In this document: positions 6,947 to 62,751 of the stretch, in pieces
How the letters are laid out: each line of letters starts with the position of its first letter
Numbering within the stretch: position 1 is the first letter of the stretch
From: an uncultured delta proteobacterium
GTDB taxonomy: Bacteria > Desulfobacterota > Binatia > JACPRU01
Direction of reading: 5' to 3'
Length of the DNA stretch: 64,000 bases
Assembly: GCA_963745025.1 (NCBI GenBank)
Contig: CAVUWD010000008.1
Location: 96,001-160,000, forward strand
The notes under the pieces: generated by a model
The model's database searches: none
Seen by the model: the letters and a program-made list of their open reading frames with translations, nothing else
Told to the model about the DNA's origin: nothing
Position numbers and translations under genes: made by a program

Positions 6947-7181
6947 GGCGCAAAGAAGAAGACTGATCGCCACGCTGCGATGGATTGTTGAACGGCTCGT
7001 AACGCTCGCCATCGCCGTTCCAATTCAGCTCGGCGCGTTGCTGGTCTGGGCGATTGTCGTGGGCAGGCTCCAAGACGCGGTGGCCGGTGTCCTCGGTCAT
7101 CCCGTTCTCGATCCTGACGACGAGTTCACAACGAGGGTCACTTTGCGAGCGGCGCCATCTCCTAAGAAACAACGACAGTAG
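6945..7181 (+). CDS. Small membrane protein gene cassette; 3' end altered by IS110 insertion
   Basis: Starts in R' (gttagATG); gttagatggcgc complements reconstructed gcgccatctaac. Confidence 0.6.
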   Translation: MAQRRRLIATLRWIVERLVTLAIAVPIQLGALLVWAIVVGRLQDAVAGVLGHPVLDPDDEFTTRVTLRAAPSPKKQRQ

Positions 7182-8483
7182 GGGTTTGTAATTGCACGAG
7201 TTGGAAGCCGAGAGAGGCGGCGCGCTTGGAGAGAGAGCGGACGGTGCGCTCGCGGAATTTGAGTTCGTAGTAATCGATGCCGAGATCTTTGTAGGGTTGG
7301 CGGTGCTTCCACATTCGGTAGAAGATGCGCGAGAGCTTGTGGGCGGTGGCGGTGATGGCCTTGGGGGGCCCGAGTCGGGCGCGCATGCGGCGATGAAAGG
7401 CACCCAGAGCGGTGTGGCTGTTGCCGGCAGACTGAGCGGCTCGGCGTAAGGCAGTGGCCACACGGTTGGAGGCTTTTCGGGTCTTGGAGCTTTTCACTTC
7501 TCCTCCGGTGACACGGTTGTCGGGGCACAGCGCAAGCCAGGAGGCGAAGTGCTTCTCGGAGGGAAACTTCGAGGGATCGAGGCCGACCTCGGAAAGGATG
7601 GTCTGCACGGTGAGGGCATCGAACCCCGTGATGGCGGTGAAGTCGACGCCTGAGATTCGATAGAGGTGGGTGCGCAGGTCGAAGCCAGCCTCGTTGCGCT
7701 GGGGCTTGCGGTGGGTGGCCTTGGGTTGTCCCAGGGGCGTGAGAGCAGGGTCGACTTGGGTGTCGAAGCCGCCCAGGCATTGCTCGATCCGCAGGTCGCA
7801 GTCGGCAATCATGCTGCGGTAGGTGTCATAGAGCGAGAGGCATTGCTCAAGTGCGAAGAGGTGCTCGGGTCGGTAGTCGCCCTGGAGGGATTGGGCGATG
7901 CGCTCGGAGGTGCTCTTGATGCGATGATCGCGCATCGCGGCCAGAAGCTGTGGATCTCGCTCACCGGCGAGGATGGAGCGAATGATTCTCATGCCGCTGA
8001 CGCCGGTGATGTCACTGATGACCTTGTGAAGCTGGATGTTCATCTGGGTCAGGGCCTTCTGCATGCGCTGCACGTGAGCGGCCGCGTCGCGGATGAGAGT
8101 ATCGCGCTGGCGGATGTAGCTGCGCAGCACGCAGGTCTGATCGTCGGGACGAAACGATCCCGAGAGTAGACCAAAGGTGTGCAGCTGCTGGAGCCACTGG
8201 CAGTCCTGGATGTCGCTCTTTCTGCCGGGCAGGTTTTTGACGTGGCGGGCGTTGACGAGCTTGACCTCTCCTAAACGGGATAACCCTCCGTGCGAGGGAG
8301 GGCTTCACCAATGAAACAACCGCAAGCCCCCCGGAACCATGCTAACCCACGGGCGCGAAGGCACCATTGGCGCTACGGTCTTAGCTACCCGAGCACATCC
8401 CGGTGTACTCGACGCACACCGGCGCAGCAAAGACACTCAGGTTTCTTCCATCAACAACACCGCGCCTCGCGCGGGGTCAAATG
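7161..8483 (-). mobile_element. IS110-family element copy 1, with 366-bp internal deletion
   Basis: Near-identical to 60014-61702; flanked by CT at 7159-7160 and 8484-8485; lacks transposase N-terminus. Confidence 0.93.
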
Positions 8484-8531
8484 CTAACAAGGCGCACAAC
8501 CTGCTCGCTGCGCGCTCCGCTCCGTTTCGCT

Positions 8532-58804: not shown

Positions 58805-60034
58805 GTGCACCACGAAACCACACTGATCGCCACCATCGCTGTTAGTCTAGCCTTTGCCCTCGCCGGAGGCTTCATCGCTATCCGGCTGCGCCTGCCGTCT
58901 CTCGTCGGCTACTTACTGGCTGGCGTTGCTGTTGGGCCGTTCACTCCAGGGTTTGTCGCCGACGCGAAGCTTGCGCCACAACTGGCTGAGATCGGGGTCG
59001 TACTACTCATGTTTGGTGTCGGGATGCACATCTCGGTGCGCGACCTTTTGGCGGTTCGCGCGATAGCGGTGCCCGGTGCGGTTGTTCAGATCGCGGCAGC
59101 GACGGCGCTTGGTGTCGGTGTCGCTTTGCTGTGGGGCTGGTCGTTGGGCGCCGGTCTTGTCTTTGGGCTGTCCCTCTCGGTGGCCAGCACGGTCGTGCTC
59201 CTCCGTGCGCTCGGGGCATGGGGCATCCTGGACTCGAGCAATGGCCGCGTGGCGGTCGGCTGGCTCGTCGTCGAAGACCTCGTGATGGTTCTTACACTCG
59301 TGTTGCTCCCAGCGTTAGCAGGGTCGCTTGGCGGACAGCCGTCCAGCCACGCCAACGTTGGCACCGCATCACAGAATCTGTTGGCTATAGTAGCTCTGAC
59401 CTTTGGCAAGGTGGCGGCGTTTATCGTCCTGATGCTGCTGGTTGGCACGCGCGTCTTTCCGTGGTTGCTCGAGCGGATCGAGGAGACTGGGTCGCGAGAG
59501 CTGTTCACACTCGCCGTGGTTGCTCTCGCTTTGGGCGTCGCCTTCGGCTCGGCGGAGCTCTTCGGGGTATCGTTTGCTCTCGGAGCTTTCTTTGCCGGCG
59601 TGGTTATCAACGAGTCTGATTTGAGCCACCGCGCGGCAACCGATTTGCGGCCTTTGGAGGACGCCTTCGCCGTCCTCTTCTTCGTGGCGGTCGGTATGCT
59701 CTTCGACCCAAGCATCCTGCTGCGTCAGCCCCTTCAAGTTGTTACGGTCGTCGCAATCATTGTTCTCGGCAAGTCAGTAGCCGCTGGGGCCATCGTGTTG
59801 GCGTTCCGGTACCCTCTCGATGCGGCGCTGACGGTTTCCGCGGCGCTGGCGCAGATCGGCGAGTTCTCTTTTATCCTCGCTGCGCTGGGCGTCAGCCTCG
59901 GGCTCCTGCCAGCGGAGGCGCACAACCTGATCGTGGCGGGTGCGCTCGTCTCGATCACCGTTAATCCGCTTCTCTTTTCCGCAATCGCCAACGTGTACCC
60001 CGGGAAGCGGCCTCCTAAGAAACAACGACAGTAG
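58805..60034 (+). CDS. CPA2 cation:proton antiporter (YbaL/KefC-like membrane domain)
   Basis: GPFTPG, AEIGVVLLMFGVG, LSVASTVV, AQIGEFSFIL; last codons derive from the IS. Confidence 0.92.
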   Translation: MHHETTLIATIAVSLAFALAGGFIAIRLRLPSLVGYLLAGVAVGPFTPGFVADAKLAPQLAEIGVVLLMFGVGMHISVRDLLAVRAIAVPGAVVQIAAATALGVGVALLWGWSLGAGLVFGLSLSVASTVVLLRALGAWGILDSSNGRVAVGWLVVEDLVMVLTLVLLPALAGSLGGQPSSHANVGTASQNLLAIVALTFGKVAAFIVLMLLVGTRVFPWLLERIEETGSRELFTLAVVALALGVAFGSAELFGVSFALGAFFAGVVINESDLSHRAATDLRPLEDAFAVLFFVAVGMLFDPSILLRQPLQVVTVVAIIVLGKSVAAGAIVLAFRYPLDAALTVSAALAQIGEFSFILAALGVSLGLLPAEAHNLIVAGALVSITVNPLLFSAIANVYPGKRPPKKQRQ

Positions 60035-60038
60035 GGGT

Positions 60039-61436
60039 TTATAATTGCACGAGTTGGAAGCCGAGAGAGGCGGCGCGCTTGGAGAGAGAGCGGACGGTGC
60101 GCTCGCGGAATTTGAGTTCGTAGTAATCGATGCCGAGATCTTTGTAGGGTTGGCGGTGCTTCCACATTCGGTAGAAGATGCGCGAGAGCTTGTGGGCGGT
60201 GGCGGTGATGGCCTTGGGGGGCCCGAGTCGGGCGCGCATGCGGCGATGAAAGGCACCCAGAGCGGTGTGGCTGTTGCCGGCAGACTGAGCGGCTCGGCGT
60301 AAGGCAGTGGCCACACGGTTGGAGGCTTTTCGGGTCTTGGAGCTTTTCACTTCTCCTCCGGTGACACGGTTGTCGGGGCACAGCGCAAGCCAGGAGGCGA
60401 AGTGCTTCTCGGAGGGAAACTTCGAGGGATCGAGGCCGACCTCGGAAAGGATGGTCTGCACGGTGAGGGCATCGAACCCCGTGATGGCGGTGAAGTCGAC
60501 GCCTGAGATTCGATAGAGGTGGGTGCGCAGGTCGAAGCCAGCCTCGTTGCGCTGGGGCTTGCGGTGGGTGGCCTTGGGTTGTCCCAGGGGCGTGAGAGCA
60601 GGGTCGACTTGGGTGTCGAAGCCGCCCAGGCATTGCTCGATCCGCAGGTCGCAGTCGGCAATCATGCTGCGGTAGGTGTCATAGAGCGAGAGGCATTGCT
60701 CAAGTGCGAAGAGGTGCTCGGGTCGGTAGTCGCCCTGGAGGGATTGGGCGATGCGCTCGGAGGTGCTCTTGATGCGATGATCGCGCATCGCGGCCAGAAG
60801 CTGTGGATCTCGCTCACCGGCGAGGATGGAGCGAATGATTCTCATGCCGCTGACGCCGGTGATGTCACTGATGACCTTGTGAAGCTGGATGTTCATCTGG
60901 GTCAGGGCCTTCTGCATGCGCTGCACGTGAGCGGCCGCGTCGCGGATGAGAGTATCGCGCTGGCGGATGTAGCTGCGCAGCACGCAGGTCTGATCGTCGG
61001 GACGAAACGATCCCGAGAGTAGACCAAAGGTGTGCAGCTGCTGGAGCCACTGGCAGTCCTGGATGTCGCTCTTTCTGCCGGGCAGGTTTTTGACGTGGCG
61101 GGCGTTGACGAGCTTGACCTCGAAGCCGCGCGTCTCGAGGATCTGAAAGAGCGGGATCCAGTAGACTCCGGTGGATTCCATGACCACGGTGTCGACTCCG
61201 CACTGCTCGAGCCAGTCAGCCAGACGGTGCAAATCGGCGGTGAAGCACTCGAAGCGGCGCACGGGCTGCGGATCGCGGTCCTCGGGAACCGCCACGTAGT
61301 GCTCGGCGGATCCGACATCGATGCCGGCGGCGTTGAGGTGCACAGCCTTGAGGCTCGCGGGCAACCCCGTTCCTCGCGCGACGCTCTTTCTCTTTCGGCC
61401 TGCGCCGGGTTTGATAGACTCCTTCATCGAGTACAC
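60039..61436 (-). CDS. IS110 DEDD recombinase/transposase
   Basis: AGIDVGS, MESTGVYW, KSDIQD, FASWLALCP. Confidence 0.95.
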   Translation of the reverse strand: MYSMKESIKPGAGRKRKSVARGTGLPASLKAVHLNAAGIDVGSAEHYVAVPEDRDPQPVRRFECFTADLHRLADWLEQCGVDTVVMESTGVYWIPLFQILETRGFEVKLVNARHVKNLPGRKSDIQDCQWLQQLHTFGLLSGSFRPDDQTCVLRSYIRQRDTLIRDAAAHVQRMQKALTQMNIQLHKVISDITGVSGMRIIRSILAGERDPQLLAAMRDHRIKSTSERIAQSLQGDYRPEHLFALEQCLSLYDTYRSMIADCDLRIEQCLGGFDTQVDPALTPLGQPKATHRKPQRNEAGFDLRTHLYRISGVDFTAITGFDALTVQTILSEVGLDPSKFPSEKHFASWLALCPDNRVTGGEVKSSKTRKASNRVATALRRAAQSAGNSHTALGAFHRRMRARLGPPKAITATAHKLSRIFYRMWKHRQPYKDLGIDYYELKFRERTVRSLSKRAASLGFQLVQL

Positions 61437-61660
61437 CTCCTTGGAGTTGGGATGTGCTCGGGCCGGGTGGGTCGAAGGTGAGAAATCTCCTAAACGGGAT
61501 AACCCTCCGTGCGAGGGAGGGCTTCACCAATGAAACAACCGCAAGCCCCCCGGAACCATGCTAACCCACGGGCGCGAAGGCACCATTGGCGCTACGGTCT
61601 TAGCTACCCGAGCACATCCCGGTGTACTCGACGCACACCGGCGCAGCAAAGACACTCAGG
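61437..61660 (-). ncRNA. Predicted bridge/seek RNA
   Basis: 14-bp closing stem 61449-61462/61607-61620; motifs matching target and donor; boundaries approximate. Confidence 0.7.
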
Positions 61661-61702
61661 TTTCTTCCATCAACAACACCGCGCCTCGCGCGGGGTCAAA
61701 TG

Positions 61703-61795
61703 CTAACACGGCGTTGGAACGGCCCCGCGCATGAACGGCGAGTCATCAAGGCGAGCCGCGGTGGGCGCGAGCCGCTCAACCTTCGGTCGTTGATA
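61703..61795 (+). other. Integron attC site, split by IS110 in R''
   Basis: (gc)CTAAC...gttg(g)aacggc/gccgctcaac...GTTGATA. Confidence 0.8.
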
Positions 61796-62010: not shown

Positions 62011-62460
62011 TCAGGACTCGATCAGCTCGATCCGCACCTTCGCCACGCCGCGACGGACCATACCGAGGACGCGGGCCGCGCCGTAGGACAGGTCGATCGC
62101 GCGGCGGTAACGGTACGGCCCCCGGTCGTTGATCGTCACCAGGACCGAGCGGCCGTTGCGCAGGTTCGTCACCCGCACCTTGCTGCCGAGGGGCAGGGTC
62201 GGGTGGGCGCCGGTCAGGTCCTGCGGGTCGAACTCCTCGCCACTGGCGGTACGCCGGCGCGCGAACTCCTGACCGTACCAGGATGCCTGTCCGATCTGGG
62301 CCCCGTCCGTCGGCAGCTCATCCGCACGAGCAGGCGGGGCGAACGCCAGCAGGGTGACGAACGCAACCCAGGCGCAAACGCACCGTAACGCGAGCCGCTG
62401 GCCGGCATCGAAGTAGGGACCGGAGTTTGCTCCGAGGCCCCCGGACGAGGCAGTTTGCAT
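62011..62460 (-). CDS. rlpA: RlpA-family lytic transglycosylase (DPBB domain)
   Basis: GQASWYG, TASGE, AHPTLPLG, INDRGPY, IDLS. Confidence 0.93.
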   Translation of the reverse strand: MQTASSGGLGANSGPYFDAGQRLALRCVCAWVAFVTLLAFAPPARADELPTDGAQIGQASWYGQEFARRRTASGEEFDPQDLTGAHPTLPLGSKVRVTNLRNGRSVLVTINDRGPYRYRRAIDLSYGAARVLGMVRRGVAKVRIELIES

Positions 62461-62476
62461 CGTTGGGCTCCTTGAA

Positions 62477-62597
62477 CGCCGGCGAAGTTAGCTGACGGGT
62501 TCGGGCTCAAAGAGCGTAGCCCGTCCGGGTCCGTTGCCGCGACCCGGATTAGCCCCAAGACGCTGGGTCCTCCGCTCCCCTTCCGGGGATTAGGCGC
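62477..62597 (-). promoter_or_regulatory. c-di-AMP (ydaO/yuaA) riboswitch
   Basis: Minus strand: aatcc...ggaggaccca...ttggggctaatcc...cccgaacccgtcagctaacttcg, matching family hallmarks. Confidence 0.88.
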
Positions 62598-62751
62598 GTA
62601 TTATGGGCGCTATTGCCGCAAAGCTGGGACCCCGTCAACGCCCGTGGAGGATGAACCTGGGCGCGTCCGGCGTAAATTGAGCTTATTCAGCCCCTTAGCG
62701 TGCGGTCGAGGAACCCGTCGGTCTCCCGAGTGTGCGGGGCAGGCGCGATCG

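Follow-up and report, generated by a model that had tools for sequence, protein, structure and literature searches.

A predicted bridge RNA guide map for an ISPpu9-like IS110 element, with one donor guide that likely reads a site inside the element's own left end

Judged by published descriptions, the closest studied system to the element described here is ISPpu9 of Pseudomonas putida KT2440, together with ISPsy35 and ISWpi13. ISPpu9 has a left box of 41-43 bp with a palindrome, a right box of 16 bp and circles joined at AG, and it has a long structured leader, a native promoter about 85 nt inside the element and hairpin-repeat targets; its published boxes also contain a short inverted repeat, CAAACA / TGTTTG (PMC12288879, PMC8450116). 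In the parts of these two papers covered here, no guides are mapped, subterminal repeats are said to be absent and the palindrome is left unexplained. Statements on other published systems refer likewise to the covered parts of the sources cited.

The element lies in a window of 64,000 nt, which is the whole stretch of DNA that was analysed, and is defined by the following features.

60012-61704, minus strand: IS110 element, with the AG core at 61704-61703 and at 60013-60012, 1691 nt from core to core; five copies have common boundaries.
60039-61436, minus strand: IS110 recombinase open reading frame, 465 aa from GTG, with PF01548 and PF02371; NF033542.

Like ISPpu9, this element is bounded on either side by an AG core, its left box contains a palindrome (43 nt counted through the inverted repeat, with a hairpin) and its right box is short. 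In Supplementary Table 1 of Durrant, the row that holds ISPpu9, ISPsy35 and ISWpi13 has a representative whose N-terminal domain is, by eye, closely like that of this protein (PMC11208160). The targets differ, being an attC-like repeat here and the P. putida REP in ISPpu9. No extra copies of the left-end box are found in this genome, hence no ssr9-like module.

The likeness to IS621 and ISCro4 (IS622) lies in a left-end RNA in which the target loop precedes the donor loop (PMC11208160, PMC11208158). As in IS621, the loops form a pair of similar build, a 5′ and a 3′ guide flanking the inner stem of each, and handshake bases come after the 3′ guide, whose last bases are the core (PMC11208160, PMC11208158). 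The sequence-only reading rightly matched the target-then-donor order to that of IS621. Inside each loop the order of the 5′ and 3′ guides is the opposite: in IS621 the 5′ side pairs with the bottom strand and the 3′ side with the top strand, and here this is reversed (PMC11208160, PMC11208158). The core on the gene strand is CT in IS621, while this element carries AG and thus lacks the IS621-type core (PMC11208160). The IS621 donor arms abut the core on opposite strands, whereas the second arm here would lie 26-33 nt away on the same strand; IS621 also has a junction promoter and a protein of 328 aa, as against about 462 aa here (PMC11208160, PMC11208158).

The seekRNAs of the IS1111 group (ISEc11, ISKpn4, ISPst6, ISPa11) resemble the RNA described here in that the top-strand complement stands 5′ of the bottom-strand complement in the target loop (PMC11187229). 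The group also has subterminal inverted repeats (7 bp here, exact in 28/31 clusters), and attC sites are the targets of ISKpn4 and ISPst6 (PMC11187229). In the IS1111 group, however, the RNA lies downstream of the gene and the protein has 330-350 aa, while here the RNA lies upstream, the right end is 27 nt long and the protein has about 462 aa (PMC11187229). Unlike the repeat of that group, the left repeat here is 37 nt in, behind a hairpin.

The IS110 bridge RNA family is known and the ISPpu9 clade has been studied; here a fourth guide, judged by the pattern of sequence change across relatives, likely points about 30 bases into the element's own left end. A guide map for the ISPpu9-like clade, or a displaced same-strand donor guide, was not found in the literature searched (PMC12288879, PMC8450116, PMC11208160, PMC11208158, PMC11187229, PMC13626964, PMC3205602), coverage of which stops short of figures, bioRxiv supplements and parts of the Durrant tables. 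Nor was either found in the covered text of Sun 2025, Xie 2026, Hu 2026, the IS622 and ISPpu10 work or the October 2026 non-coding atlas preprint, whose Fig. S12, on deviant bridge RNA structures, lay outside this coverage.

The genome holds five copies of the element with both ends, and one fragment at a contig edge. All five copies start after GTTAG and finish at TTAGGAG. Their left flanks are gtgttAG, ttgttAG, aggttAG (twice) and gggttAG, and their right flanks (gccg, atgg, cgtt, gttg and ttga) have nothing in common. When the empty site of the window copy at 60012-61704 is rebuilt, it aligns over the junction to an intact 91-nt palindromic paralogous repeat on contig C6 (77.6% over 85 nt), so that GTGTT is target sequence and AG is the core. 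The start of the left end is confirmed by joints with a single AG, right end straight to left end, in the relatives L039, L130, L199 and L203; for the present element no joint of this kind was seen. The presence of AG at both ends of the five copies bears out the AG core in element orientation that had been proposed from the letters.

61703-61709, minus strand: left target arm and core (gtgttAG), part of an attC-like palindromic repeat that extends to about 61781.
7159-8485, minus strand: the window's second copy; its two ends are intact, and 366 nt are deleted from a point just past the 3′ donor guide into the open reading frame.

The deletion in the second copy begins one base past the DNA of the 3′ donor guide, which mimics the right end, and rejoins the open reading frame at a GA microhomology. 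With both of its ends intact, this copy is a candidate non-autonomous element. Repeats of the target family are palindromes of about 90 nt with RYYTAAC and GTTAG boxes, found at C6:422430-422530, on C12 near 71528-71617 and 73870-73960, and on C4, C7 and C8; the family hosts two of the five element copies. In the C12 copy, GTTAG-like 5-6-mers are repeated on either side of the junction. On their sequence these repeats are called attC-like only. A link to integrons was rejected, as no integron integrase scores above the TIGR02249 cut-off in this genome (93% complete), the strict attC box test is passed by one of the five rebuilt sites, and two of the five align to the attC-like family. Membership of an IS1111-attC group was likewise set aside: the element is not of the IS1111 type, no integrase passed the cut-off, and only two of five copies sit in attC-like repeats.

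Two neighbours of the element may be noted. A CPA2 antiporter open reading frame of 409 aa at 58805-60034 (plus strand) takes its last codons and stop from the right end of the element; in the rebuilt empty site its end would fall within the attC-like repeat. A c-di-AMP riboswitch at 62463-62606 (minus strand; 87.8 bits against a gathering threshold of 38) stands directly upstream of a gene for a DPBB_1 / RlpA-like lytic transglycosylase at 62011-62460 (minus strand).

The recombinase has the IS110-family domains, a DEDD RuvC-like domain and a Tnp domain with a hydroxyl nucleophile, and scores 276 bits against NF033542 (cut-off 140). Its residues D40, E87, D124 and D127 are in place, and Thr359 stands where IS621 has the catalytic serine; Thr replaces Ser at this position in 47 of the 81 clade loci read. 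The protein is 57% identical to Wolbachia IS110 proteins. A likelier start than the GTG is the ATG at 61427, which follows an AAGGAGG box.

The three motifs singled out in the sequence-only reading are present on the minus strand, GGGTTAG at 61561-61567, GTTGTTTC at 61532-61539 and TTAGGAG at 61487-61493, and a perfect 14-bp stem does enclose them. That reading placed the bridge RNA in 61437-61660, a segment that holds the predicted RNA within bounds that are too broad.

61449-61620, minus strand: predicted bridge RNA, 172 nt, closed by the perfect 14-bp stem 61607-61620 / 61449-61462.
61621-61649, minus strand: weak candidate for an internal promoter, TTGCTG and TACACC spaced by 17 nt, selected by eye.

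The fold of 61449-61620 has an energy of -82.3 kcal/mol (z -4.1, with 0/200 shuffles as good). It has two twin loops, each with a 5′ side, TGGTG opening the inner stem, CCCG, an 8-nt 3′ side that ends in AG, and a closing stem. By computation this is the structured end RNA with two internal loops that is characteristic of the IS110 family. In the minimum-energy fold much of the guide sequence is paired internally, and Rfam has no match within the predicted RNA. Across relatives, 86% of the cells of the named helices are paired, compared with 80.4% in shuffles and 31-53% when the helices are slid; the helices of the inner loops are almost invariant and therefore give little covariation support. 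The position of the putative promoter agrees with the mapped ISPpu9 start about 85 nt inside the element. A scan for consensus promoters found none, and the scoring script favoured another site in the window copy at 60012-61704. The best -10-like box follows the left repeat in 30/35 clusters, in a scanned stretch that lies mostly on that side. With transcription in ISPpu9 beginning about 85 nt in and the stem of the present element opening at +83, the transcript probably does not include the left box.

The guides were compared with their DNA across relatives fetched as 79 genome and 80 metagenome loci. Among 162 loci with the 5′ part, the five own copies included, 108 fit the two-loop motif and 105 gave both loops, and these 105 form 38 clusters at 85% RNA identity; the 57 unparsed loci, which are truncated or more divergent, are not counted. 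The left core was called blind to the guide, as the AG (preferably AGC) nearest to 33 nt before the inverted repeat, and the target test omits five loci whose left flank resembles the right end of an element. The tree contrasts rest on 28 independent pairs in a FastTree of 56 proteins, and a change is counted when the DNA follows both letters at the changed guide positions.

61561-61567, minus strand: 3′ target guide GGGUUAG, same sense as the left target and core.
61588-61591, minus strand: 5′ target guide CGCC, antisense to the core G and right target +1 to +3.
61559-61560, minus strand: handshake bases CA, identical to left end +1 and +2.
61487-61493, minus strand: 3′ donor guide UUAGGAG, same sense as the right end and core.

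Agreement of the 3′ target guide with the 5 nt leading up to the left core is 0.73-0.92, position by position, compared with 0.31-0.39 (85 loci, 30 clusters, 0/2000), in a set that includes 38 distinct 5-mers; in the tree contrasts the flank follows at 35/48 changed positions and at 1-2 when slid. In this genome GGGUUAG matches gtgttAG at 6/7 and ttgttAG at 5/7, and over the five targets 20/25 non-core positions match, with GTT invariant in 5/5. The 5′ target guide agrees with right target +1 to +3 at 0.58, 0.51 and 0.52, against about 0.26, with 10/26 tree contrasts. It is little used in this genome, where 5/15 positions match. The handshake bases track left end +1 and +2 (0.97 and 0.82 against 0.86 and 0.46; 5/9 contrasts). 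A handshake of the donor loop against the right target gave a weak signal (101/2000) and was rejected. The 3′ donor guide agrees with the right end at 4.78, against 3.96 (0/2000), with 6/7 tree contrasts. Both assignments of the sequence-only reading, GGGUUAG as a target guide and UUAGGAG as a donor guide, are thus upheld by covariation, as in 30-34 clusters of relatives both guides vary in concert with the DNA they match (0/2000). The antisense target guide, the handshake bases, the reversed guide order and the kinship to ISPpu9 had been overlooked. Loops and DNA covary around a shared core, as is characteristic of the IS110 family, and it is very probable that the motifs form a largely readable guide map of a bridge RNA of known family and studied clade.

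The 5′ side of the donor loop does not follow this pattern. The right end spells GTTGTTTC-TTAGG-AG at 60026-60012 (minus strand), and the donor match had accordingly been described as two same-strand blocks, which it is, that together form one contiguous 15-nt guide, which is not borne out: GUUGUUUC agrees with the right end at 3.55 against 3.61 (94 loci, 34 clusters), 1341/2000 permutations being as high, follows it in 1/45 tree contrasts, and in the later loci falls below the null (2.04 against 2.55). The split right-end guide was rejected on this absence of covariation. The full 8/8 match to the right end occurs only in this element; the other loci of the 94 tested reach at most 6/8, and the four or five closest relatives have 4-6/8. 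In 3000 dinucleotide shuffles of the 172-nt RNA, TTAGGAG appears in 42, GTTGTTTC in 16, and some 8-mer of the 72-nt end junction, on either strand, in 792, so that an 8-nt match to an end without covariation is weak evidence. A second donor arm in the style of IS621, antisense to left end +1 to +6, was rejected as well (1.43 against 1.42; z 3 exceeded in no cell; outscored by the internal site, described below, in 26/31 clusters).

61532-61539, minus strand: 5′ donor guide GUUGUUUC, same sense as the internal site of the left end.
61670-61677, minus strand: internal site of the left end, GTTGTTGA, at +26 to +33, with which the 5′ donor guide covaries; 6/8 in this element.

When every position of the loop sides was compared without prior bias with every end and flank position, in both senses, ten cells rose above z 3, and five of them lie on one diagonal. 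These five relate the 5′ side of the donor loop to the stretch from 10 to 6 bases ahead of the left inverted repeat, read in the same sense (z 5.7, 5.1, 4.2, 3.3 and 3.1). In a fixed register the 5′ donor guide matches the internal site at 5.12 of 8, against 2.92 (98 loci, 35 clusters, 0/3000), and at 1.65-2.52 in registers slid by 1-3; in the tree contrasts 19/57 changed guide positions are followed, and 1-4 when slid. A later set of 29 further loci (viral, phylum sample, plasmids), 23 of them parsed, gives 4.50 against 2.73 (23 loci, 18 guides, 0/5000) with a parser that was fixed once after the sequences had been seen; the earlier parser, which misplaced the inverted repeat in many loci, gave 2.95 against 2.26 (31/5000). 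Within this set, in the fixed register, the 11 AG-core loci match at 4-7/8 (one needs a one-base shift) and the 12 AA-core proteobacterial loci at 2-5/8. In the sisters L199 and L203, whose proteins are 88% identical, one guide base and the DNA site change together, and the match is kept at a fixed distance from the inverted repeat among proteins that are 45-80% identical. Based on this covariation, the 5′ side of the donor loop likely reads the left-end stretch from +26 to +33, on the strand that the right-end guide also reads.

The donor register is about one base off that of the target loop. Mismatches at guide positions 2-6 comprise 24 of the wobble type for bottom-strand pairing and 5 anti-wobble, a split chosen after the fact; over positions 1-6 the two kinds are even, 20 to 19. 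As proof of the strand the wobble asymmetry was rejected, being soft and favourable only at positions 2-6.

61679-61693, no strand assigned: DNA hairpin in the left end, 6-bp G-C stem with a 3-nt loop, extendable; -9.6 kcal/mol, z -3.5, 0/200 shuffles.
61660-61666, minus strand: left subterminal inverted repeat AAGAAAC, +37 to +43.
60017-60023, minus strand: right subterminal inverted repeat GTTTCTT, 3 nt before the core.

The internal site sits between the hairpin and the 7-bp subterminal inverted repeat. Across clusters the left repeat is 29-45 nt from the left core, and its exact complementarity to the right-end box in 28/31 clusters compares with a permuted mean of 9.0 and maximum of 16. 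With five loci of doubtful core omitted, the inner hairpin has z below -1 in 20/30 clusters and below -2 in 11/30; it is weak (z above -1) in 10/30, Wolbachia included. The folded end junction of this element has a 7-bp stem, a bubble of about 9 by 11 nt that contains most of both guide-bound stretches, and the hairpin.

This architecture leads us to favour, as a fairly probable reading, a single-strand donor, in which both donor guides pair with the element's bottom strand, folded back at the left end. The layout would be that of IS621 with the DNA frame turned round, CT being on the strand opposite the gene, and cleavage and exchange would begin on this CT-bearing strand. Each target-loop guide would bind the strand whose 5′ to 3′ direction leads away from the core. 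Because the donor guides are same-sense, the bottom strand would have to make a U-turn if the donor loop is to behave like the target loop. In the end-to-end junction, the bottom strand would pair its two 7-nt inverted repeats and form the G-C hairpin, leaving a bubble with the core and the right-end arm on one side and the internal site opposite, in the usual place of the second strand. CT is missing from the returning arm, so exchange would be limited to one strand and replication would complete the transfer, a copy-out followed by a single-strand paste-in. Integron attC sites are likewise folded single-strand substrates in which one strand is exchanged and replication completes the process. 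The weak match of the AA-core loci (2-5/8) and the weak hairpins in a third of the clusters speak against a folded donor. The one-base offset of the donor register, the internal pairing of guide sequence in the minimum-energy RNA fold, the duplex preference of CazIS110-1 and the circles formed by the ISPpu9 palindrome mutant (both described below) also count against it.

Whether IS110 circles are double- or single-stranded, and whether one or both strands are exchanged, is disputed between Hiraizumi 2024 (PMC11208158) and 2026 on the one side and Sun 2025 and Xie 2026 on the other. Single-strand excision and one-strand insertion have been reported for IS621 and CazIS110-1, and in CazIS110-1 a double-stranded donor is preferred about 20-fold at one junction (10.64898/2026.08.31.748434; 10.1101/2025.10.25.684509). 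The single-strand models for these two elements have a normal donor, with adjacent arms on opposite strands, which differs from the arrangement proposed here (10.64898/2026.08.31.748434; 10.1101/2025.10.25.684509). In ISPpu10 the hairpin is in the target (10.64898/2026.03.19.712850), whereas here the fold would be in the element's own end. Common to the arrangement proposed here and to the work on ISPpu10, IS621 and CazIS110-1 is that DNA secondary structure and one-strand exchange matter in bridge recombination.

The 5′ donor guide could read the internal site while a stable folded single-strand donor is unnecessary. The site would then be caught in an unwound or protein-looped left end, perhaps for excision only or as a check of end identity, and insertion would proceed via the right-end half-match alone. 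The covariation would be identical to that of the folded single-strand donor, and the hairpins that are weak in a third of the clusters suit this alternative. So do published results: IS621 works with donor half-matches according to the cited literature, and ISPpu9 with a mutated left-box palindrome still formed correct circles in end-point PCR (PMC12288879), so the inner hairpin is dispensable for excision in ISPpu9. Deletion of the left box stops circle formation in ISPpu9, whose 41-nt left box lies upstream of the mapped start (PMC12288879, PMC8450116), and its authors regard a role of the palindrome in efficiency or integration as possible (PMC12288879). Against the alternative, the two ends covary in their inverted repeats, and in most folds these repeats close a bubble with the guide-bound stretches facing each other. 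Duplex DNA, moreover, is hard to bend into a U-turn within 30 bp. We consider this explanation somewhat unlikely.

The identity between donor loop and left end could also stem from something other than guide pairing, namely an ancient duplication within the element, recurrent sequence conversion or a regulatory contact of the kind an Asr9-like antisense RNA would make. The DNA that codes for their own guides can serve these elements as a recombination site, to judge by the insertion of L033 into the donor guide of a sibling, an antisense RNA lies over the corresponding region in ISPpu9 (PMC8450116, PMC12288879), and the match fades within the AA-core subgroup. Nevertheless, the match keeps its fixed distance from the inverted repeat among proteins 45-80% identical, recurs in independent tree pairs, and falls on the loop side whose counterpart in the twin target loop is a guide. 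A search for a third strand able to pair with both guide and internal site, the common partner such a contact would have, stayed within the null (41 and 36 of 300 permutations reached as high a value), and this origin of the identity is quite improbable. The single 15-nt right-end guide of GUUGUUUC plus UUAGGAG, despite its 8/8 and 7/7 identity in this element and the rarity of the exact 8-mer in shuffles, is extremely improbable given the absence of covariation described above.

If the folded single-strand donor is correct, the hairpin and the inverted repeats would build a duplex-like substrate, which would explain the A box of ISPpu9. In ISPpu9 itself, the 8 nt before TGGTG of the donor loop should resemble the sequence immediately upstream of the left-box repeat, roughly CGCTGTCG with a tolerance of one base in register. 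The case is evenly balanced that a widespread clade has turned its donor into an attC-like folded single strand, with both guides on one strand and one-strand exchange obligatory; together with this reading, and at the same even level, the clade concerned would include Deltaproteobacteria-like, Acidobacteria, Chloroflexi, cyanobacteria, Wolbachia and Proteobacteria members and ISPpu9. A clade whose donor guides can both pair only on a folded-back strand would be evolutionary evidence for the single-strand route, and would provide a natural RNA-programmed system to insert single-stranded DNA cargo. The guide map offers a basis for reprogramming the ISPpu9-like clade, and with its 5-nt left guide and almost unused right guide the element appears to be a natural half-match targeter. 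Pipelines that rebuild the donor from 25-nt windows would mostly miss the site at +26 to +33, which may explain the lack of an earlier report.

Some relatives have distinctive targets. In the AA-core subgroup (L188-L198, L201, L205 and L218, from proteobacterial plasmids and genomes) the target guide is a run of A and insertion is at A6 runs. These A6 targets resemble IS3-family frameshift sites, and an IS3 is annotated beside L191. In Wolbachia, the L033 element sits at an AG within the donor-guide DNA of a related IS110 element. In L039, L121, L186, L199 and L203 the target guide has the sequence of a right end from the element's own family, and each element stands directly after such an end, so that these five appear to target sibling elements or themselves.
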